Source: Opitutales bacterium
GTDB lineage: Bacteria; Verrucomicrobiota; Verrucomicrobiia; Opitutales; UBA9783
Reading direction: 5' to 3'
Assembly (NCBI GenBank): GCA_046881885.1
Contig: JBKSMP010000027.1
Location: forward strand, 1-25,384
DNA length: 25,384 bases
Shown: piece after piece, positions 2,291 to 25,384 of the stretch
Layout: each line of letters opens with the position of its first letter
Numbering within the stretch: position 1 is the first letter of the stretch
Translations under genes and position numbers: made by a program
Notes under the pieces: model-generated
Databases searched by the model: none
The model's input: the letters and a program-made list of their open reading frames with translations, nothing else
What the model was told of the DNA's origin: nothing

Positions 2291-4168
2291 TTATTTTTTT
2301 ACTTTTTTTGCCTTGTTTTTGTGGTATTCAACCCCCAAATCCATAGCAGCTTGAAGATCGCTCTTTAATAACTCTGCATTAAACAAGCAATCTAAAGACA
2401 AATAAGTTTTGCCTATTTTTCCATCTAATGGTTTAAATTTCAAACATGTGTAAGTTCCGAAATGTTGTGCCGCAACAAAATTTTTTACTTTTATATTTTT
2501 TAACATGCGTATTAAATTCTCTGCAATTGCAAGAATTTTCTTATTTGATGCTTTAACATCAGTAGTATGTGCTTCAAAATATGCATTTTGAACAGCCATA
2601 AAACTCTGTTTTATATCATTTATTTTTATTTGTGTTTCTTTTAAGCTTTTTATCATTTTTTTCGCCTTGACAATATTTTTCTTCTTTTGGTCTTTTACTT
2701 TTAGTTTCGGATTTTGTAAACATTCTATAGGTAAAAAATTATCTTTATCAAGGCACTTAACATATTCATTTAGATCTGTTAAACTTAATGTACAGTATCT
2801 TTCAATTAAATAAAATGGATCTTCGTAAGCCCAAACATTTAAAGTTTCATAAAAATTTTCCATTCCACAAACTGTACTTAAAAAACTTTTATAAGGTTCT
2901 CTTAAAACTTTGCTCATTACTTTACCAATTTTCATCAAAAGCTTCATTCCGCGTTCTTTTACAGGATCATAACCAATATTACTTCCTAATGGCAAGCAAG
3001 GCACAGGATCTGCATAACTACAATATCCTAAAATATTTTGCCTCCCCATAACATTTTCGATTGTTTTTAAAGTATTGGCATCACCAATAGCTCTAGCAGG
3101 CGATAAACAAATAGCATGAGCTATATTAAATACCTTATTGTCAAAATTATTTCCATATAAATATTTTCCAACCCAACTTGTTATGTAAGGTGCAGCAATT
3201 TGGGTCAATCCGCCTCCTTGACTATGTCCAACAATATATAGCTTTATACTACATTTATTAACTTTATCTACTTGTTCCCTCAATTCTATTCCAGAAATAG
3301 AAGAATCATTTAAGTCTAAAGCATTAAAGTTTTTTATTTTTAATTTCTCAAATAAACTTTTAAGAATACCTTCTGTACTTATTTTAGAAGAAATTATTTT
3401 ATTGTAAAAACCTTCATGCAGTGATAATTTTTGTGCAGAATTTAATAAAAAGCTGCTAGGTATTTCCAAGCTTTGGGGATCTACATTTACTTTCTTTGCA
3501 TTAAAGTTTGTCATCCAACTTGCTCCCCCAACGCCTCCTAAAAATTGAAAGTTTTCACCTTGAGAACCTTCTTCTATAGCAAAAATTTGGATTTGTTTTT
3601 CGCTTCCTTTTAAAATTTCTTTATAAGCAATCATTCCCATAATACCATTTTCTTTTATTCTAGCAGCTCCATGCGTTCCATAAATAAAACCTGCAATTTT
3701 AACTCTTCTATTAGTAATCAATTTTTTAAAAGCAGGAGAAGCATCATTATTATTATCCTCCATTTTATTTTGAGGAAACAAAACCTTATCTTCTTGATAA
3801 CGTTTAGTTGTTTGGTATAGACACTGTGTTGCAACTAAAATGTCATAAAAAGTGTTTTTATCTAAAACATTTGTATCTATTTTACGGTTAGATCCTGTTT
3901 CTAGCCATAATTCTTTGGATTGTTTGGATAACAAGAATTGATTTCGTGCAGGTGCTATAGGTTTTTTTGGCCTTCTTGCCCGTACATCTCTTCTATTAAA
4001 TTTAGTTCTTTTAAAAGAATTAGGAGCTTTTGTAGAATTTTTGATATCATCTAAAACAAAAGTCTCATCTTTAAATCTATCTTCAACGGAAAAATTATCT
4101 GCTGATTTTGCATAAGCAGTCGATTTTAATGATAAAACAATTCCAATAAAACAAAAAAAATGCTTCAT
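2291..4168 (-). CDS. secreted class-3-lipase-like alpha/beta hydrolase (625 aa) with a long C-terminal extension
   Basis: N-terminal signal peptide MKHFFCFIGIVLSLKSTAYA. The order of conserved blocks is typical of the Lipase_3 family: HEGFY, nucleophile elbow VGHSQGGG (GHSQGG at plus 3212-3229, Ser codon 3221-3223), SPARAIGD, and the Asp block YADPVPCLPLG. About 220 further residues follow, ending in the Lys-rich tail HKNKAKKVKK. Confidence 0.7.
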   Translation of the reverse strand: MKHFFCFIGIVLSLKSTAYAKSADNFSVEDRFKDETFVLDDIKNSTKAPNSFKRTKFNRRDVRARRPKKPIAPARNQFLLSKQSKELWLETGSNRKIDTNVLDKNTFYDILVATQCLYQTTKRYQEDKVLFPQNKMEDNNNDASPAFKKLITNRRVKIAGFIYGTHGAARIKENGIMGMIAYKEILKGSEKQIQIFAIEEGSQGENFQFLGGVGGASWMTNFNAKKVNVDPQSLEIPSSFLLNSAQKLSLHEGFYNKIISSKISTEGILKSLFEKLKIKNFNALDLNDSSISGIELREQVDKVNKCSIKLYIVGHSQGGGLTQIAAPYITSWVGKYLYGNNFDNKVFNIAHAICLSPARAIGDANTLKTIENVMGRQNILGYCSYADPVPCLPLGSNIGYDPVKERGMKLLMKIGKVMSKVLREPYKSFLSTVCGMENFYETLNVWAYEDPFYLIERYCTLSLTDLNEYVKCLDKDNFLPIECLQNPKLKVKDQKKKNIVKAKKMIKSLKETQIKINDIKQSFMAVQNAYFEAHTTDVKASNKKILAIAENLIRMLKNIKVKNFVAAQHFGTYTCLKFKPLDGKIGKTYLSLDCLFNAELLKSDLQAAMDLGVEYHKNKAKKVKK

Positions 4169-4199: not shown

Positions 4200-4273
4200 T
4201 GGTGCAGGTGGACGGAATCGAACCGACGAATCCAGCTTGGAAGGCTGGAGTTTTACCACTAAACTACACCTGC
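4200..4273 (-). tRNA. tRNA-Gly (anticodon UCC), CCA encoded
   Basis: The reverse complement is GCAGGTGTAGTTTAGTGGTAAAACTCCAGCCTTCCAAGCTGGATTCGTCGGTTCGATTCCGTCCACCTGCACCA. Acceptor stem GCAGGTG/CACCTGC, D stem GTTT/AAAC, anticodon stem CCAGC/GCTGG with loop CTTCCAA, T loop TTCGATT. There is one T-T mismatch in the T stem. Confidence 0.88.
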
Positions 4274-4577: not shown

Positions 4578-5036
4578 ATGGTTGAAAACGGATATGTAGA
4601 TGCAAATGTTTTAAACGCAATTCCTCATCGAGAGCCTTTTTTGTTTGTAGATCGGATTGTTGAATTAACGGATGAAAAAATCGTTACAGAAAGGGTTTTG
4701 AAGAAGGAGGAATTGTTTTTTAAAGGACATTATCCGCAAATGCCGATTATGCCTGGGGTGTTGATGTGTGAAGCTATCTTCCAAACAGCCGGTGTATTTA
4801 TGAGCAAAAAGCTTTTAAATGAAGCAGAAGTGGAAGGTAAAGTTCCGGTTTTAACGCGTATTGAATCTGCAAAGTTTAAGAAAATGGCTTTCCCGGGAGA
4901 TGTTTTGCAGTTAGAAGCTCAATTTGTGCAAAAACTAAAGGATTTTTATTTCTTTAAAGGTTGTGCCAAAAAAGATGGACAATTGCTCGTTTCTATCGAG
5001 TTTATTCTTGGAATGGTTAATAACTCGAGCTTATGA
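4578..5036 (+). CDS. fabZ: 3-hydroxyacyl-ACP dehydratase FabZ
   Basis: 152 aa. Hot-dog fold signature HREPFLFVDRI plus FFKGHYPQMPIMPGVLMCEA. A 4-nt ATGA overlap links it to the next lipid-synthesis gene. Confidence 0.93.
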   Translation: MVENGYVDANVLNAIPHREPFLFVDRIVELTDEKIVTERVLKKEELFFKGHYPQMPIMPGVLMCEAIFQTAGVFMSKKLLNEAEVEGKVPVLTRIESAKFKKMAFPGDVLQLEAQFVQKLKDFYFFKGCAKKDGQLLVSIEFILGMVNNSSL

Positions 5037-8038: not shown

Positions 8039-8815
8039 TTAAAATCTGGGATTTCTTGAAAAAAAGCAAAAATTACATAAAGTTTCTGCATGGACTCCCT
8101 GAAAACCTGGCTGTATAAGGCGTGTTCCGACAAATAATCCACGTCTGCAACCAGCTACGTAAGGTGTTTGAGTTGAAGAATCGTACAATGGATACCCAGC
8201 ACGTTTTCTAGCATTGGTGTAAAAAATGCCTGTCGTTTCATCTTGAGAAAAAAACTGAGGCCAATCGTTGGAGGTTGTATTGTTATTGGTACCCTCGCCT
8301 GATTCAGCAGTTTCGGTTGTTAATTTTGGCAAATACCCAACAGTTAAATTGGTAAGAGTATCTTTTGTTTCGTTAATGGGCTTACCGGTACCTACATTAG
8401 ACGAAAATGTTACTAAAGCTCTGTATAAGGGATAACAGTCTTGACCATTTAGTGATATTGCTTCACCAACATGATAAATAACACCGCGACCGCCTTCTAC
8501 CATACCACGTTCTTGTACAAAAAGGATGCAATTGCCTATGCAGGGTGCTGTTGGTAGGGTAAAATTACCGTTTTCCGGTGAAATTATTTCTTCTAGATTA
8601 TTAAATACATAAAAACTTAAAGCATTGTGAACATCTTTTTCTAAAAATTTTGATAAAATACGCAAACTTTCGTTTATTTTATTACTGCTACTAATATAGC
8701 GGTACTGATTTAATTGCGTCAGAAAAAATTGAATAATACAGGTTAAGGTAATACAAGCTAAAAAACTTGCCATTAACACTTCTACTAAAGTAAATCCGCT
8801 TTGTCGTTTTTTCAC
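8039..8815 (-). CDS. prepilin-type N-terminal cleavage/methylation domain protein (large pseudopilin/pilin-like, 258 aa)
   Basis: GTG start. The N-terminus MKKRQSG/FTLVEVLMASFLACITL matches the class III signal (G-FTLxE plus hydrophobic helix). It lies 51 bp upstream of the platform gene. Confidence 0.75.
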   Translation of the reverse strand: MKKRQSGFTLVEVLMASFLACITLTCIIQFFLTQLNQYRYISSSNKINESLRILSKFLEKDVHNALSFYVFNNLEEIISPENGNFTLPTAPCIGNCILFVQERGMVEGGRGVIYHVGEAISLNGQDCYPLYRALVTFSSNVGTGKPINETKDTLTNLTVGYLPKLTTETAESGEGTNNNTTSNDWPQFFSQDETTGIFYTNARKRAGYPLYDSSTQTPYVAGCRRGLFVGTRLIQPGFQGVHAETLCNFCFFSRNPRF

Positions 8816-8864
8816 ATAATTTATTCTACATTTTATACTTTTTTTTGCAATATTTAAAATGCTT

Positions 8865-8926
8865 TTGGCTCAAATTTGGTACAACTTGGCACAAATGTGT
8901 CATAAGTGTGTCGTTTTGGCACAAAA
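8865..8926 (+). promoter_or_regulatory. phased array of TTGG(C/T)(A/T)C-A-rich motifs; possible upstream activator/enhancer sites
   Basis: TTGGCTCAAAT at 8865, TTGGTACAAC at 8876, TTGGCACAAA at 8886 and TTGGCACAAAA at 8916, all in the same orientation. Offsets are 11, 10 and 30 bp. A fifth copy at 8998 is the -24 element of the sigma-54-type promoter, 82 bp further on. Confidence 0.4.
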
Positions 8927-8998
8927 AATGACAGTAATAAACTATCTGAAAGAAAGGTTTTTGTTTAAAGTCCGCATAAATACTAGGATTTGAAAAGT

Positions 8999-9013
8999 TG
9001 GCACGATTTTTGC
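8999..9013 (+). promoter_or_regulatory. sigma-54-type -24/-12 promoter, exact consensus, upstream of dnaK
   Basis: TGGCAC (8999-9004), GATTT, TTGC (9010-9013), an exact match to TGGCAC-N5-TTGC and to the extended form TGGCACG-N4-TTGC. It lies 17 nt from the -12 C to the dnaK ATG, so the predicted TSS is about 9025. Confidence 0.55.
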
Positions 9014-9029
9014 GAAATAAGAAGGTATT

Positions 9030-10982
9030 ATGAATAAAGTTACAGGAAAAGTTTTAGGTATTGACCTTGGAACAACAAATTCGTGTATGTCCATTATGGA
9101 AGGTAACGAACCAGTTGTTATTCCAAATGCAGAAGGAGCTCGTACGACACCTTCGATTGTTGCATTTACCAAGACCGGCGAACGTTTGGTTGGGCAGGCT
9201 GCAAAACGTCAGGCAATCACCAATCCAAAAAATACTATTTTTTCGGCAAAGCGCTTAATTGGTCGCAAATATAATGAAGTTAAGTCCAGTCTACAAGGCT
9301 TACCTTATAAGGTTGTAGAAGGTAAAAACGGTGATGCTTGGATCGAGTGTGAAGTAGGGGATAAAACCGAACGTTTTGCTCCAGAACAAATTTCGGCTAT
9401 GGTTTTGGCGAAATTAAAGGCGGATGCAGAGGCTTACTTAGGCGAACCGATTAAACAAGCTGTTATTACCGTTCCTGCCTATTTTAATGATTCGCAACGT
9501 CAAGCGACCAAGGACGCCGGAGCGATTGCAGGTTTAGAAGTTTTGCGTATTATCAATGAGCCTACAGCTGCTTCGCTTGCTTACGGTTTGGATAAGAAAA
9601 AAGATGAAACGATTGCCGTATTCGATGTTGGAGGAGGAACATTTGATATTTCCGTTTTGGAAATTGGTGATGGTGTTTTTGAAGTAAAAGCGACCAACGG
9701 TGACACTGTATTGGGTGGTGACGACTGGGATGATGCCATTATTACTTGGTTGGCAGATTCCTTCCAGCAAGAAAATGGAATTGATTTGCGTCAAGATCCA
9801 ATGGCACGTCAACGCTTAAAAGAAGAAGCGGAAAAGGCCAAGATCGCGTTGTCGTCTGCACAAGAAACGGATATCAACTTACCCTTTATTACAGCAGATG
9901 CTAGTGGTCCTAAGCACTTAAATGTGCACTTAACACGTTCGAAGTTGGAACAAATCTGTGATCCTTTGTATGAACGGTTAAAGACACCATTTTTTGCCTG
10001 CTTAAAGGATGCGGGAATTGATGATAAAAGCATCAATGAGCTTGTTTTGGTTGGTGGTATGACTCGTTCTCCTAAAGTCGTTGAATTAGCTAATGCTTTA
10101 GTTGGAAAACAAGCACACAAAGGTGTTAACCCGGATGAAGTGGTTGCCATTGGTGCAGCTATTCAAGGTGGTGTTTTAAAGGGTGATGTAAACGATATCT
10201 TGCTCTTAGACGTAACACCATTAACATTGGGTATTGAAACAGCAGGGGGTATTTCGACCCCAATGATCGATCGTAACACAACCATTCCGACCAAGAAAAC
10301 ACAGACTTTCTCAACGTATGCGGATAATCAAACTGCAGTCGATATTCACGTGCTTCAAGGTGAACGTTCGTTAGCTAAAGACAATAAGACTTTGGGCGTG
10401 TTCCGTTTAGAGGGTATTCCTATCGCACATCGTGGTGAACCAAAAATCGAAGTTACCTTTGATATCGATGCTAGTGGTATCTTGCATGTAACCGCTAAAG
10501 ATGTTGCAACTGGTAAAGACAAGAAGATTACTATTACAGGTTCGTCTGGGTTCTCGGATGAAGAAGTAGAACGTTTGCGTAAAGAAGCCGAACAATTCGC
10601 TGAGCAGGACAAGAAAGAACGCGATCGAATTGAAACCTTCAATCGTTTGGATACTCTTGTTTATCAAGCAGAGAAGCAAATCAAAGAGTTTGGAGACAAG
10701 TTGCCAGCCGACAAGAAGGAGTCTTTAGAAGCTAAAATTGCCGATATTAAAAAGGTTTTAGAGAATAAAGACGCCGATGGTGAATTGCTCAAGAACAAGG
10801 AAACGGAATTGATGGATTTGTTGCAAGCGATTGGAAGTGCTATGTATGCAAATGCTTCGGCAGAGAATGGTCAACCCAATCCACAAGCTGAACCACAAGC
10901 CAATGCAGGTTCTGCGAAAAAAGAAGATGGAAATGTCGTTGACGCCGATTTCGAAGTTGTTGATGATGGAAAAAAGGAATAA
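9030..10982 (+). CDS. dnaK: molecular chaperone DnaK (Hsp70)
   Basis: 650 aa. Contains [17 protein letters not shown]-type ([13 protein letters not shown]) and VLVGGMTR motifs. Full-length Hsp70 with an acidic C-terminus. Confidence 0.97.
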
Positions 10983-11010
10983 AGTTTTAATCTTAAGTTA
11001 GGAAAAAATT

Positions 11011-11307
11011 ATGTCAGTAAAAATACAACCTATTGGAGACCGTGTTTTAGTAAAAATGGTTGAAGATGCGGAACAAATTAAAGGTGGAATTATCATTCCG
11101 GATTCTGCTAAGGAAAAGCCTCAGGAAGCTGAAGTGATTGCTTTAGGTACCGGAAAGACCGATAAGGAAGGTCGTACGATTGCTTTCCAAGTTAAAGCTG
11201 GAGACCGCGTTTTAATTAGCAAATACGGTGGAACTGAGGTCAAATTTGGAGACGAAAAGTATACTTTGTTGCGCGAAGACGACATTTTGGGAATTATTAA
11301 TAAATAA
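11011..11307 (+). CDS. groES: co-chaperonin GroES
   Basis: 98 aa. [11 protein letters not shown] and [18 protein letters not shown] (mobile loop) are typical of Hsp10. It starts 28 nt after the dnaK stop. Confidence 0.96.
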
Positions 11308-12954
<1,647 letters not shown>

Positions 12955-12978
12955 TTCACACGCCATTCATAAAAAACT

Positions 12979-13017
12979 AAAGAGGGCTTTAGCTAAATGT
13001 AGCTACTGTCCTCTTTT
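12979..13017 (+). terminator. rho-independent terminator after groEL
   Basis: AAAGAGGGCTTTAGCTA-AATG-TAGCTACTGTCCTCTTT forms a long hairpin. It has a perfect TAGCTA/TAGCTA apical stem, a 2x2 internal mismatch and a GAGGGC/GTCCTC base. It runs into TTTT. Confidence 0.6.
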
Positions 13018-13087
13018 CATTTGATAGAAAATGTGTAGTTTTCTAATGGGATTTAACGGTAGATCTTCTGGAAAAACTAATTTAAGC

Positions 13088-13117
13088 TTGACAAAACCAC
13101 AAATATTTACCGAGAAT
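13088..13117 (+). promoter_or_regulatory. sigma-70-type promoter candidate with leaderless geometry for the 179-aa orphan
   Basis: TTGACA (13088-13093), 18-nt spacer, GAGAAT (13112-13117), 6 nt, then ATG at 13124. Confidence 0.3.
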
Positions 13118-13123
13118 AGGGCT

Positions 13124-13663
13124 ATGAAAAAAGAAATCGTAAAAGGGTTAAGTATTTTTGGGTTAAGTTTAATCATGAATTTAGGATTAGCATTTGGTGG
13201 CGGCAGTGAAAAATATAGTCTTTATCAATTGGATCAGCTTTACGCGTATTGCCAAGGAAATGAAGGAGATTGGCCAAGGGTTTTGGAAAACACAAAAGAA
13301 GCCGTTTTAGCAATGCTAGCCGACGAAGATTACAAACCAAGCAATACGGATTTGATGGCAGTAAACTCTTTCTGTTGTGGTTGCAACTATTATCTTATCA
13401 GTTGGTTTATGAAATCTAAATTTTATAACGAAGCCAAACATGCTGAATGCTTAAAAAATTTATTTAGATTATCTCACAAGATGGCGTGTATGTCTGACAT
13501 GGAACCAGAAGAGACTGTAAAAATGGAACAATACAAAGTCTTAATGGAGCAGCAATTTAAGAACGATAAAAATCTTTTAAATATCATAACCGCTACTCCA
13601 TTTTCAGAGCTAGCAAAGCTAGCTGCAGGTATTATTCAAAGTAATATTGACTGGGGTGAATAG
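13124..13663 (+). CDS. hypothetical secreted protein (179 aa from ATG 13124; the track ORF extends to 13031)
   Basis: The internal Met gives MKKEIVKGLSIFGLSLIMNLGLAFGG, a plausible signal peptide. The 31 codons upstream run into the groEL terminator region and look non-coding. No recognisable family. Confidence 0.55.
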   Translation: MKKEIVKGLSIFGLSLIMNLGLAFGGGSEKYSLYQLDQLYAYCQGNEGDWPRVLENTKEAVLAMLADEDYKPSNTDLMAVNSFCCGCNYYLISWFMKSKFYNEAKHAECLKNLFRLSHKMACMSDMEPEETVKMEQYKVLMEQQFKNDKNLLNIITATPFSELAKLAAGIIQSNIDWGE

Positions 13664-14939
13664 AATTGACTCCTGCAAGCTCTTTTACAATTTCTTTAAT
13701 ACCTTCAGTAATTGTTAGCTCGAGCGTCCAGTGCTCTGAATAAGGCTTGTAATAGTCTTTGGTGAAATCCTTTTTAAAAGTATAGATATCTAAGCACTTT
13801 TGGCGCTTCTGAAACCAAAAATTACAATGCCCCGTCCCATTGCACTGTCCAGCCTTACAAAACCTGCAATTCTCTCTTGGGTCCCTGCAACAAAAGGAAC
13901 AATAATGCCAATATACATTCTGAGTGATTTTATTTTTACCAATCTTATATAAACTCAACAAATTAAAACACACTGACGATCTTTTAGACGCGTCTATAGC
14001 TTTTTGCAATTCTTCTGCAGCAGTTTGTGAATGGAAATTAGCTAAAACAGCTTTTCCGTATTTTAGTACCTGAGCATCTAAAACCTTAAACATGAAGAAG
14101 TTTTTATTCATAGTTAACCAAGGAACTAATTTACACGAATTACAAGCTTCAAAAAAGGAATATACTGGACTACTCAATTGCATGTCTAAAGCAAAACTTG
14201 CCGGCAATAGGAGCCGTAAAATTTTTGCATATTTTATGACATCATCAAGTTCCCCTTCTTTTTCTATAAGATCTTTTTTTTCTAATTTATAAGTTTTTAG
14301 CACCGAATGAAAAGAATTCAAGATCGTATGAATTTGAAATTCGGTATGGCGTAATTGATCTAAGTTTTGAATATTTTTTGGGCAATCATTTAACACGGCC
14401 TTTTTCGCATTCTCTAAAGAAGCGATTGGTGTTTTTAGCCTATCGGCTTGATGGTCTATAAATTGCTTTTGCCAGTCTTCGCTTGTTGCCTCAGTAGCTA
14501 AATTGATATAGTTTTTTATTTCATTTTCGGAGGGTGTTAAAATAATGCTTGCTTCACTAAATTCTTTTTCAACACTTAACTTTTTTTCTATGGGATTATA
14601 TTTCTCAAAAATGTTCGGACTAAAATCAATTTTGCCGCTCTCATCTATTGATCCAACCAAAGCAACAATATCCTCTAGAGGAACGACGATAACATCAGGA
14701 CTTTTTTCAATCTCTGGATTCTGTTTAGAAAAATAATCACCGCTCTTTAGGACAATCGTCTGGCCGACACAATTTTTATAAGCAAGAACATTACCAGATT
14801 TTTTATAATGACTTTCAGACGGATTTGCATAAGACTCAATAATAGCTTTAGGTTCAGTCGCGAAACTAAAATTAAAACCCGTTACCACCAGCAAAGAAGC
14901 TTGGATAAGTTTATGAGTAATCGTTTTTATAATCTTCAT
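13632..14939 (-). CDS. hypothetical secreted protein (435 aa) with a C-terminal Cys-rich module
   Basis: ATG at 14939 gives MKIIKTITHKLIQASLLVVTGFNFSFA, signal-like. The track's TTG start at 14996 coincides with the sigma-54 -24 element and is rejected. There are 9 Cys within 36 residues (CSFCCRDPRENCRFCKAGQCNGTGHCNFWFQKRQKC, plus 13794-13901). Confidence 0.6.
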   Translation of the reverse strand: MKIIKTITHKLIQASLLVVTGFNFSFATEPKAIIESYANPSESHYKKSGNVLAYKNCVGQTIVLKSGDYFSKQNPEIEKSPDVIVVPLEDIVALVGSIDESGKIDFSPNIFEKYNPIEKKLSVEKEFSEASIILTPSENEIKNYINLATEATSEDWQKQFIDHQADRLKTPIASLENAKKAVLNDCPKNIQNLDQLRHTEFQIHTILNSFHSVLKTYKLEKKDLIEKEGELDDVIKYAKILRLLLPASFALDMQLSSPVYSFFEACNSCKLVPWLTMNKNFFMFKVLDAQVLKYGKAVLANFHSQTAAEELQKAIDASKRSSVCFNLLSLYKIGKNKITQNVYWHYCSFCCRDPRENCRFCKAGQCNGTGHCNFWFQKRQKCLDIYTFKKDFTKDYYKPYSEHWTLELTITEGIKEIVKELAGVNSIHPSQYYFE

Positions 14940-14980
14940 CGTTTTTAAAATTTTGTTATCGTTTGATAAAAGAAAAGGAA

Positions 14981-14995
14981 GCAAAGATTGTGCCA
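14981..14995 (-). promoter_or_regulatory. sigma-54-type -24/-12 promoter, exact consensus, upstream of the Cys-rich secreted orphan
   Basis: The minus strand reads aatttT-TGGCAC-AATCT-TTGC-T (plus gcaaagattgtgcca). It is an exact TGGCAC-N5-TTGC match and is near-identical to the dnaK copy. The predicted TSS is about 14969, giving a roughly 30-nt leader to the ATG at 14939. Confidence 0.55.
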
Positions 14996-22876: not shown

Positions 22877-23053
22877 TTATAACTCGACTTCAAGCACTTG
22901 GCGATCGCGATACATACCTGTAACCGGATTAACGCGATGACGCATTACCAAATTACCTTCGGCATCTTTCATAAGTGCAGGCATTTTAAAATTGTGAGCT
23001 CCACGCCGTAAACGACTGCGCATTTTTGATTGTTTTCTCTTTGGTTGTCCCAT
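22877..23053 (-). CDS. rpmF: 50S ribosomal protein L32 (bL32), Cys-less type
   Basis: Not in the ORF track (59 aa). My translation is MGQPKRKQSKMRSRLRRGAHNFKMPALMKDAEGNLVMRHRVNPVTGMYRDRQVLEVEL*. The PKRKxSK N-terminus and H..N..TG.YR.R.V C-terminus are typical of L32. The position upstream of plsX is canonical. Confidence 0.9.
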   Translation of the reverse strand: MGQPKRKQSKMRSRLRRGAHNFKMPALMKDAEGNLVMRHRVNPVTGMYRDRQVLEVEL

Positions 23054-23083
23054 AATTATGAACTCTGTTAAATAATAACTAGT

Positions 23084-23111
23084 AGTAAACCATTGCCTAC
23101 TCTCGCGTCAA
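23084..23111 (-). promoter_or_regulatory. sigma-70-type promoter candidate for the rpmF operon
   Basis: The minus strand reads TTGACG (23111-23106), 16-nt spacer ending in TGG, then TTTACT (23089-23084). It shares TTGACGC...GGC..TGGT...CT with the prfB promoter candidate. Confidence 0.3.
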
Positions 23112-23337
23112 GTTTAATTTCGCATAAAAGCTCCTTTTGTTAAATTAGTAAAAGATAAAAACTTTGAATATTAGGTGATTGTAAAAGCATAGAAAAACTG
23201 AGAAGGATCAAAAAATAAGATAACCTCTTATGTTTGGAAATATTTCTCTTAAAATAGAGTTTTGAATATGTTTTTACCGATTGCTTTTTTCCTTTAGACT
23301 TTTATAAGATGTCTATTATGTATATCATAAGCAGAAT

Positions 23338-23847
23338 ATGATTAAAAAAAATACGATTGGAGTTATTTTATTTATGGGATCAAACTTCATTTGTTTGTCA
23401 AATGTTTTAAAAATTTATCACGAAGCATCGATAATCATTATGAATAAAATCTTAAAAAATGAAGATTTATTATATTTTTCAAAAAATTTTTACATAAAAG
23501 ATATTACTTGTTTCTTTGAAAATATAATTTTAGCTGCTTATGCCTTGACCAATAAAGATAAAAATATGCTAAATATGGCATTCAGTAATTTTGAAATGTT
23601 ATTTGCTGATCCTCCTTTATTAAAAGAGTGTTTGAATAGTTTTTGCATATTGTTTGGTCATAAAAAATATGCTAAACATTTATCCTTAACGGCAATACGT
23701 AATCATTCTAAAGAAATTACTATATTTATTTGTGTGTGTAAAAAAATGGTAGAATGGATGCCGTTGGATTTATCTAAAAATGTCATTACCATTATTGAAA
23801 ACTATGAAAAAGACATAGAAATTTCAAAAGTATTTACTAAAATTTAA
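23338..23847 (+). CDS. hypothetical protein (169 aa), AT-rich orphan
   Basis: An ORF in very AT-rich DNA with a hydrophobic stretch near the N-terminus (IGVILFMGSNFICL). No recognisable motif. Its 3' end overlaps the convergent gene by 11 nt. Confidence 0.45.
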   Translation: MIKKNTIGVILFMGSNFICLSNVLKIYHEASIIIMNKILKNEDLLYFSKNFYIKDITCFFENIILAAYALTNKDKNMLNMAFSNFEMLFADPPLLKECLNSFCILFGHKKYAKHLSLTAIRNHSKEITIFICVCKKMVEWMPLDLSKNVITIIENYEKDIEISKVFTKI

Positions 23848-25384
23848 GCTGTCTGGTCTTAGTCTGCGTCGCATCAATAATTTCTTTAACCTTTTGTTTT
23901 AAAACCAGAACTTGTTTCCATTCTTCATCGGAAAGTTCATCGGGTTTATTTTTTACATTTACGTAACCAGATAGGCGCATAATATCCTTTTCTTCTATGT
24001 AGTCTTCATAGGCATTAAGTAATTTATTTGATCTTTTATTTTTATAAAATCCAAAAGAAATATTTTTTTCTGCTAAAGGTTTTATTAAGTTATTAGTTTC
24101 TTCCACAAACTCAGTTGAATAAATGTTTTCTTCAACACCAAACCAAACAGTTTCTAAATTTTTTATTTTATCTAAGCAATTAATAAAATATTTTACATCT
24201 CTCTGTAAATCTTGACAAATAATAGTTTTGCAAGAAACATTTTTGCCAACTTCTTCTAGCTCATCGCAAAACAAGGTATTACAAGTTACATTTTCCATCA
24301 TAACAATCGTTTTGGGAACAAATAGAATAGCTTCAGTGTTTTTAGGATTAACAATAGGTGTCTTTTCAACTTTTAAACAAGACGCATATTCTATCGGAAC
24401 AGAAAGGGATCCTTCTGTATAATTGTTGGTCAATGCTATTTCTTTAATTTTTATCCGATTTACACGGTTATCATGCACATAAGCATGCAACTGTTTTCTT
24501 AATTCTTTTTCCTCTGTTATTGGAAATAGTTTTTTTTCTGCTAGTATTGTTTTTAGTTTTTCTAGTACTTTTATAAATTCTTTTATTTCCTCTCTTAATC
24601 TGTATTTTTGTTCTCTCAATATCTCTATAAATTCCTCATTTGAAACAGCTTTAGAAATCTTGTCTAAATAAAGCTTTTTTCTAAATTCTTGTTTTAAATT
24701 TAACCCCAAGAGTAATTCCACGCCTTTTTTTAGTTCTTCTATGGATTCACCTTTTAAATATTTTAAAGCTAATTTGAGTTTTTCCTTTAATATTTGTTCT
24801 TCCGAAAAAGGTTTAAAAAAGACTCTTATAGTATCAAAACTTAAGTTTTCAATATCTAACTTAGCAAATTTTAAATAGTCATCAAAAGAGGTAACATTTG
24901 CCTCATAAGCAATTATTTGGCATTTACTTAAATCGTATCTTTTTTCAATTTCATCTTTATCAGCTGCGTTTGCAACTCTAAAAACAACAGGTTTACCATA
25001 TTTAATAAATGTATTATAACATTTCCCAAACCAATCTATATCACGATAAAATCCCCACATAAAAAAACTTTCAATAGAAAATTCATCGGTTTCTTCTATA
25101 GGCACTTCGTCATAATTTGTAAATCCTTGACGCTTAAAAATAATAGGCTTTTTTCCTAGTTTTTTAGCTTTATCTGTATGCAATGATCTAAGCTTGGTAA
25201 GAATTTCATTCAACTCGCGTTCACCAACAAGACATTCTACGATATACTGATCCATACCTTTTTGAATCACAAAACCATTTCTTTCGTAAAAAGCATCCCA
25301 ATCAGGAATCACTTGTACTTTTAATTCTTCGTTTGCTATTGTAGGTTTCTCTTTTACTTCATTGTTAGTTGTTGCCGTTTCTTG
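23837..25384 (-). CDS. hypothetical protein, 5'-partial (at least 515 aa; the frame is open to the window edge)
   Basis: The track start at 25312 is a GTG. The 24 codons upstream (QETATTNNEVKEKPTIANEELKVQ) contain no stop, so the gene probably begins beyond the window. The central K/E-rich helical region looks coiled-coil-like. A tandem NV(T/S)C.T..C..L motif lies at 24206-24292. Confidence 0.6.
   Translation of the reverse strand, partial: QETATTNNEVKEKPTIANEELKVQVIPDWDAFYERNGFVIQKGMDQYIVECLVGERELNEILTKLRSLHTDKAKKLGKKPIIFKRQGFTNYDEVPIEETDEFSIESFFMWGFYRDIDWFGKCYNTFIKYGKPVVFRVANAADKDEIEKRYDLSKCQIIAYEANVTSFDDYLKFAKLDIENLSFDTIRVFFKPFSEEQILKEKLKLALKYLKGESIEELKKGVELLLGLNLKQEFRKKLYLDKISKAVSNEEFIEILREQKYRLREEIKEFIKVLEKLKTILAEKKLFPITEEKELRKQLHAYVHDNRVNRIKIKEIALTNNYTEGSLSVPIEYASCLKVEKTPIVNPKNTEAILFVPKTIVMMENVTCNTLFCDELEEVGKNVSCKTIICQDLQRDVKYFINCLDKIKNLETVWFGVEENIYSTEFVEETNNLIKPLAEKNISFGFYKNKRSNKLLNAYEDYIEEKDIMRLSGYVNVKNKPDELSDEEWKQVLVLKQKVKEIIDATQTKTRQLKF

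Follow-up and report, generated by a model that had tools for sequence, protein, structure and literature searches.

The dnaK-groES-groEL operon of the Opitutales bacterium studied here is very probably transcribed as a single unit from a functional, enhancer-dependent sigma-54 promoter, a prediction that was reached by comparing sequences. As the same layout recurs in related phyla, the chaperones of this Verrucomicrobium and of the relatives that share the layout are probably switched on by an ATP-dependent activator rather than through sigma-32 or HrcA. Heat or proteotoxic (protein-folding) stress has about an even chance of being the inducing signal.

The promoter in front of dnaK and its conservation

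The window, which is the whole stretch of 25,384 nucleotides that was analysed, carries dnaK at positions 9030–10982 on the plus strand (650 residues, Pfam PF00012, HSP70). It is followed after 28 nt by groES (11011–11307, plus strand, 98 residues, PF00166) and after a further 9 nt by groEL (11317–12954, plus strand, 545 residues, PF00118). A terminator-like hairpin (12979–13016) with a U-rich tail, together spanning 12979–13024 on the plus strand (ΔG of −19.6 kcal/mol, z of −4.2 against shuffled sequences), is the likely end of the operon. The gene order dnaK-groES-groEL is kept in PVC loci.

The 214-nt gap between a prepilin-like gene and dnaK holds the putative sigma-54 promoter TTGGCACGATTTTTGCG (8998–9014, plus strand), which is oriented like dnaK and is followed 17 nt downstream by its ATG. 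As the original prediction stated, the sequence fits both TGGCAC-N5-TTGC, at 10 of 10 positions (8999–9013), and the extended form TGGCACG-N4-TTGC. The −24 GG (9000–9001) and the −12 GC (9012–9013) are exactly 10 bp apart. The window contains two exact matches to the consensus, whereas dinucleotide shuffles predict 0.06 and one of 100 shuffles reached two; the claimed excess over expectation is real. Both matches are intergenic and correctly oriented, again as had been claimed, the other (14995–14981, minus strand) being co-oriented with an open reading frame of 435 residues.

The dnaK loci used for comparison came from a species-representative genome set, from metagenomes and from contigs encoding close DnaK homologues. 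The best genome matches to DnaK were Puniceicoccales MAGs (82 and 71% identity), with Lentisphaerae and Victivallales coming next; many named Puniceicoccales/Opitutales DnaK proteins are 72–82% identical, and a relative from a Hadza gut metagenome reaches 86%. The motif TGGCA(C/T)-N5-TTGC, at most one mismatch away from the consensus, was found just upstream of dnaK in all ten Puniceicoccales/Opitutales loci, namely the window, L001, L002 and L166–L172 (DnaK identity 71–96%). The promoter site was also present with at most one mismatch in the Lentisphaerae/Victivallales loci L003–L006 and in the unclassified metagenomic loci L085, L088 and L089. Two further unclassified metagenomic loci, L086 and L087, have two mismatches (TGGC[CT]C-N5-CTGC), and six Omnitrophota-type loci have TGGCA(C/T)-N5-TTG(A/T). 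The controls were 128 loci (Acidobacteriota, Chloroflexota and others) in which DnaK is without the N-terminal signature of the PVC type; one of them has a strict match within 120 nt of the dnaK start.

In an alignment of seven relatives (78–100% DnaK identity), the intergenic region averages only 60% identity, and invariant columns form three islands only: two blocks of the upstream activating sequence (UAS) and the promoter with a GG that follows it. The promoter is conserved at the orthologous position while its flanks diverge. Phylogenetic footprinting speaks for a genuine sigma-54 promoter at this site. Together with the conserved enhancer and the presence of RpoN in the clade, both described below, it likewise supports the assignment of this promoter to dnaK-groES-groEL in the original prediction.

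Some dnaK loci outside the PVC group (L024 from Latescibacterota, L100, L110, L096 and L078) carry TGGCACG-N4-TTGT or TGGCATAGGAATTGC 53–114 nt upstream of the gene. There are hints that sigma-54 control of dnaK may reach some FCB-related and other lineages.

The upstream enhancer and its candidate activator

An array of half-sites of the TG[GA][CG][AG]CA type with a phasing of about 10 bp extends over positions 8866–8933 (plus strand), as judged from the sequence, from half-site enrichment and from the islands of the alignment. It consists of TGGCTCA (8866), TGGTACA (8877), TGGCACA (8887), TGTGTCA (8896), TGTGTCG (8907), TGGCACA (8917) and TGACA (8929). Four of these form two dyads on the plus strand: dyad I, TGGTACAACTTGGCACA (8877–8893, TGGTACA-ACT-TGGCACA), centred at −140 from the predicted start, and dyad II, TGTGTCGTTTTGGCACA (8907–8923, TGTGTCG-TTT-TGGCACA), centred at −110. 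The dyads are 30 bp apart and have the form TG..(C/T)CA-N3-TGGCACA. Dyad II matches TGTGCCA-N3-TGGCACA at 12 of 14 positions and is the sole 17-mer of the 25-kb window that scores 12 or more. The arrangement is that of an NtrC-type UAS, in which at least two 17-bp dyads lie about 80–150 bp upstream on the same helical face. The A/T-rich segment between the array and the promoter (8934–8997, plus strand; alignment columns of about 100–165) is poorly conserved and may act as a spacer for looping.

Half-sites TG[GA][CG][AG]CA occur 31 times in 18 upstream regions of 200 nt, against about 2.7 expected, and are enriched about 10-fold between −80 and −150. A best dyad scoring at least 12 of 14 was found in 9 of 19 loci and in none of 700 background windows, a scoring that is partly circular because the seed came from one of the scored loci. 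Among loci of 8–25 kb, no dyad reaching a score of 12 lies anywhere but upstream of dnaK. A perfect palindrome, TGTGCCATGTTGGCACA, is present in L168 and the dyad CGTGCCAAAATGGCACA in L169, both accompanied by a second dyad 31–32 bp upstream; the two centres are at −130 and −98 in L168 and at −128 and −97 in L169. Two dyads separated by 30–32 bp recur in L168, L169, L004 and L088. In L164, where an activator gene is adjacent, the dyad TGTCTCGTTTTGGCGCA is near-identical to dyad II of the window. No recognisable dyad was found in L171, L172 or L089, though the promoter is present there. In the window alone, loose clustering of half-sites is highest upstream of dnaK, at a level that 18 of 200 shuffles also attain and that is not significant. 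The case for the enhancer is for this reason built on the cross-species evidence.

Sigma-54-like matches in reverse orientation were noticed in L004 (2806–2820, minus strand, exact) and L088 (1714–1728, minus strand, one mismatch). They consist of an enhancer half-site (TGGC[AG]CA) and a nearby TTGC. They were rejected as promoters, there being no divergent gene to serve, and were judged to be by-products of the half-site sequence.

The conserved enhancer implies an activator that bears a helix-turn-helix (HTH) domain. Neither rpoN nor a sigma-54 activator gene was found in the window, and the contigs encoding an identical DnaK are at most 20 kb long and lie inside its span; the presence of both genes in this genome is expected from relatives. 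In L169 and L173 (86% DnaK identity), rpoN is divergent from dnaK (minus strand; 1243–2601 of L169, equivalent to 8243–9601 of L173). The encoded protein has the Pfam AID, CBD and DBD domains, scores 399 bits with TIGR02395 (cut-off 277), and contains the RpoN box ARRTITKYR. There, rpoN and dnaK-groES-groEL share a control region of 400 nt, an adjacency that is not kept in the window or in L166–L168. No activator gene was found in the 10-kb flank around the rpoN-dnaK locus of L173. Every sampled Opitutia genome, including that of the Puniceicoccales member Coraliomargarita akajimensis, has one sigma-54 and about 7–8 activators (PMC12316311 supplement).

In six Omnitrophota-type loci (L007, L009, L015, L025, L116 and L164), genes for a kinase and an NtrC-type regulator are located immediately upstream of dnaK, and the intervening gap before dnaK holds both the dyad and the promoter. 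The kinase has a PAS-HisKA-HATPase architecture, and the response regulator a receiver-AAA+-HTH_8 architecture with a GSFTGA loop. As the regulator is below the NCBIfam cut-offs for AtoC, NtrC and ZraR, it is regarded as an unassigned member of the NtrC family. A homologue search with this response regulator gave only Omnitrophota orthologues, and no verrucomicrobial counterpart was found by it. A search of representative sequences returned a continuum of NtrC-family proteins at 45–55% identity, with cluster names from Kiritimatiellae, Spirochaetales and Omnitrophota. A kinase-regulator pair from Kiritimatiellae does not adjoin chaperone genes. In the Kiritimatiellae MAG locus L174, a dyad-like sequence, TGTGACAAAGTGACACT (4786–4802), is located 35 nt before an operon for a PAS histidine kinase and an NtrC-type regulator, which encodes the closest named PVC homologue, outside Omnitrophota, of the dnaK-adjacent activator. 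This site is the sole hint of a link to the chaperone circuit and may reflect autoregulation.

The predicted start site and alternative readings

With C9013 taken as the −12 position, transcription is predicted to start at G9025, the last G of AAGAAGG, 5 nt before the ATG. The predicted start GG (9024–9025, plus strand) is 11–12 nt after the −12 C, and the leader would be of about 5 nt (GUAUU-AUG), giving an mRNA with the 5′ end 5′-GUAUUAUG... The purine run AAGAAGG is at 9019–9025, and not at 9018–9024 as originally given. The GG is found at +11/+12 from the −12 C in the window, L166, L168, L169, L001, L170, L171 and L172, and L167 has a G at +12. The distance from the GG to the ATG varies from 1 nt (L001, L169) to 21 nt (L171). 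Being fixed relative to the −12 element and variable relative to the ATG, the GG is assigned to the promoter and initiation region rather than to a ribosome-binding site. The −12 C and the ATG are 12–17 nt apart in the window, L166–L169, L001, L002 and L085–L087, 28–33 nt apart in L170–L172, and 35–85 nt apart in Lentisphaerae. The short leader had been put forward as a caveat against the promoter. The predicted 5-nt leader stands, but it appears to be a conserved design rather than a weakness, with purines that track the promoter and not the ATG. The geometry has a precedent, as sigma-54 promoters of Chlamydia trachomatis are 16–18 nt from start codons (18 for hrcA, 16 for murA and polA; PMC7482065 Table 1).

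Translation of the dnaK mRNA would then be near-leaderless and independent of a Shine-Dalgarno (SD) sequence. An SD-like sequence within 20 nt of the start is absent from most of the 24 predicted genes of the window, and the lineage appears to rely largely on SD-independent initiation. The JGI gene calls begin DnaK about 19 codons downstream (632 residues) of the NCBI calls (651 residues) on the same contigs, as exemplified by P0176–P0180 versus P0166–P0170 in the list of homologues. The JGI start would remove the conserved phosphate-binding loop GIDLGTTNS. It is probably an artefact, the missing SD having misled the start calling.

Two other sigma-54-like sites are present in the window. The second exact consensus, TGGCACAATCTTTGC (14995–14981, minus strand), is 42 nt before the ATG (14939) of a hypothetical protein of 435 residues that is Cys-rich, secreted and without a Pfam match. 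No UAS of the dnaK type was found at this site. The gene and a neighbouring open reading frame of 205 residues are both missing in L167 (93% DnaK identity), where prfB directly follows groEL, and the region 13046–14995 for that reason looks like a variable island. A third candidate, TGGCATAAGTATTGC (4196–4182, minus strand, one mismatch), is 4 nt after a tRNA-Gly(TCC) gene (4200–4273) and is separated by 14 nt from the ATG (4168) of the downstream lipase-like gene (2291–4168), which encodes a secreted, signal-peptide protein of 625 residues with a class-3 lipase domain. It would give rise to another predicted near-leaderless sigma-54 transcript. The G+C content of the window is about 36–40%, with about 40% in the core and 26–27% at both ends. 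The low-G+C ends (1–1000 and 23000–25384) carry open reading frames of 169–491 residues without Pfam match, which may be foreign or fast-evolving genes.

Other heat-shock controls were searched for. The CIRCE inverted repeat TTAGCACTC-N9-GAGTGCTAA has no match with up to three mismatches in the whole window. The best match upstream of dnaK to the sigma-32 promoter CTTGAAA-N11-16-CCCCATNT has 5 mismatches out of 14, the commonest value in random windows. No Rfam family (RNA thermometer or leader RNA) was matched at E-values up to 1 between 8700 and 9200. A scan of 8700–13200 for sigma-70-like promoters gave 10 matches against 7.9 by chance, none of which is conserved in the alignment of seven relatives.

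A single exact match to the consensus could arise by chance, since 0.06 are expected per window and many windows were scanned. It is nevertheless extremely improbable that the site is a match without function: more than 20 orthologous loci in three phyla keep it and it is absent from about 125 controls, so that the comparative data appear effectively to refute this reading. It was also considered that the TTGGCAC-containing sequences, in the promoter and the upstream repeats alike, are operators of a factor other than sigma-54, such as a heat-shock repressor, the −24/−12 likeness being coincidental. The UAS half-site TTGGCACA is indeed nearly identical to the −24 element, and in L004 and L088 a half-site and a TTGC suffice to create the reverse-oriented matches mentioned above. 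However, the proximal site retains GG-N10-GC and TTGC where the UAS half-sites differ (L085–L087 and Lentisphaerae), and it has no dyad partner. Moreover, the gene of an NtrC-type sigma-54 activator adjoins dnaK in Omnitrophota, and rpoN adjoins it in L169. Operators of this kind are therefore very unlikely. The idea that the supposed promoter is one more UAS half-site was rejected on the same ground that a dyad partner is missing, and because the TTGC is kept at a fixed spacing.

The sigma-54 site might also be real and yet not the main source of transcript. In such a tandem or poised arrangement, most transcription would start from an upstream sigma-70-type promoter and yield a leadered mRNA with AAGAAGG as the SD sequence, and the sigma-54 holoenzyme would modulate this transcription, or block it when unactivated, as proposed for hrcA of Chlamydia. 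This reading is considered unlikely. If essential chaperones depended on an activator-dependent promoter alone, either basal activation would have to be constant or a further promoter would be required; sigma-70-like hexamers are present upstream (8811–8839, 8832–8860 and 8916–8943), and a purine run does precede the dnaK ATG. Against this, the sigma-70-like matches are as frequent as by chance and none is conserved. The GG follows the −12 element instead of the ATG and, when 1 nt from the ATG as in L001 and L169, is too close to serve as an SD. The conserved enhancer argues for activation over mere occupancy. An activated sigma-54 promoter is thus the preferred reading.

Proposed mechanism and relation to known systems

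In the proposed mechanism, sigma-54 RNA polymerase would bind TTGGCACGATTTTTGC as a closed complex. An activator of the NtrC family (receiver-AAA+-HTH), which is what is presumed to act in this genome, would bind as dimers to the dyads at 8877–8893 and 8907–8923 and to the flanking phased half-sites; its partner is probably a cytoplasmic PAS histidine kinase. The activator would oligomerise, loop over the A/T-rich spacer and open the promoter with ATP. Transcription would proceed from the conserved GG (9024/9025) to the terminator near 13020, and the dnaK mRNA, with about 5 nt before its AUG, would need no Shine-Dalgarno sequence for its translation, which appears to hold for most genes here.

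The two-dyad layout resembles the enterobacterial glnAp2/NtrC enhancer, in which two 17-bp dyads about three helical turns apart are located some 100–140 bp upstream of the −24/−12 promoter. The NtrC site has the form TGCACCA-N3-TGGTGCA, and the likeness extends from the dyad geometry to the half-site form TG...CA-N3-TG...CA. The two differ in that the half-sites here are TGTGCCA/TGGCACA and the target is a chaperone operon and not the nitrogen regulon. Sigma-54 with an activator is also known to drive heat or stress proteostasis genes, as in HsfB/HsfA-lonD of Myxococcus xanthus, where the NtrC-type response regulator HsfA is paired with a kinase, and at the Escherichia coli stress promoters pspA (with PspF), ibpB and rpoH P6. 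Those cases concern accessory genes controlled alongside sigma-32, whereas here it is the operon of the principal DnaK and GroESL, with no other heat-shock element visible.

A close parallel is with another PVC bacterium, Chlamydia trachomatis, whose sigma-54 targets include hrcA-grpE (PMC7482065, PMC8762339), within the CtcB-CtcC (AtoS-AtoC) regulon that contains hrcA-grpE(-dnaK) (Soules 2020; Huang 2022). In both bacteria a sigma-54 promoter (here a predicted one) precedes a core chaperone operon, a two-component kinase and an AAA+ activator are involved (here as candidates), and the promoter is close to the start codon (17 nt here versus 18 nt for hrcA and 16 nt for murA/polA). In Chlamydia, however, sigma-54 acts on hrcA-grpE, which also has a sigma-66 promoter in tandem and an operator of the CIRCE/HrcA type, while here the target is dnaK-groES-groEL, with a conserved DNA enhancer and no CIRCE element. 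The chlamydial CtcC is not known to have a DNA-binding domain.

Predicted sigma-54 promoters have been reported to be enriched at the COGs of GroEL, GroES, GrpE, DnaJ, DnaK and IbpA in Planctomycetota and Bacteroidota (Carrera-Reyna, Cruz-Flores and Merino 2025, PMC12316311). In that survey, the chaperone cluster was not reported for Verrucomicrobiota (Opitutia), Lentisphaerae or Omnitrophota, and no enhancer, activator or start-site geometry was given. In a full-text literature search, no report of dnaK or groESL being controlled by sigma-54 came up for Verrucomicrobiota, Lentisphaerota or Omnitrophota. The original prediction had called sigma-54 control of chaperones unusual: the control itself is supported, but the adjective was an overstatement given these precedents (PMC7482065, PMC8762339, PMC12316311). 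It is a known kind of control in a new lineage and at a new operon. The details that appear to be undescribed are the conserved NtrC-style enhancer, the candidate two-component activator and the predicted start site abutting the start codon.

A more general proposal is possible but should be taken as tentative, being rather less probable than its opposite. A dedicated sigma-54 system, composed of a PAS histidine kinase and an NtrC-type activator acting on TGTGCCA-N3-TGGCACA dyads, would be the master proteostasis or heat-shock switch that replaces sigma-32/HrcA in Verrucomicrobiota, Lentisphaerota and Omnitrophota and, with Chlamydiota and Planctomycetota, perhaps in the whole PVC group. In Opitutae, the promoter would have moved right up to the start codon, leaving the induced dnaK mRNA with effectively no leader.

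The control of core chaperones is poorly known outside Proteobacteria and Firmicutes, and in many PVC and FCB lineages neither a sigma-32 nor an HrcA circuit has been described. The locus and its relatives offer a testable circuit made up of a promoter with its predicted start, a defined enhancer sequence and a candidate two-component activator, and extend to at least three more phyla an observation that had been scattered between experiments in Chlamydia and predictions in Planctomycetota and Bacteroidota. For annotation, they warn that a purine run directly ahead of a start codon may belong to the context of the transcription start and not be a ribosome-binding site. As a naturally occurring sigma-54 transcript with a predicted leader of 0–5 nt, the dnaK mRNA would be useful for the study of SD-independent translation of a highly expressed gene.
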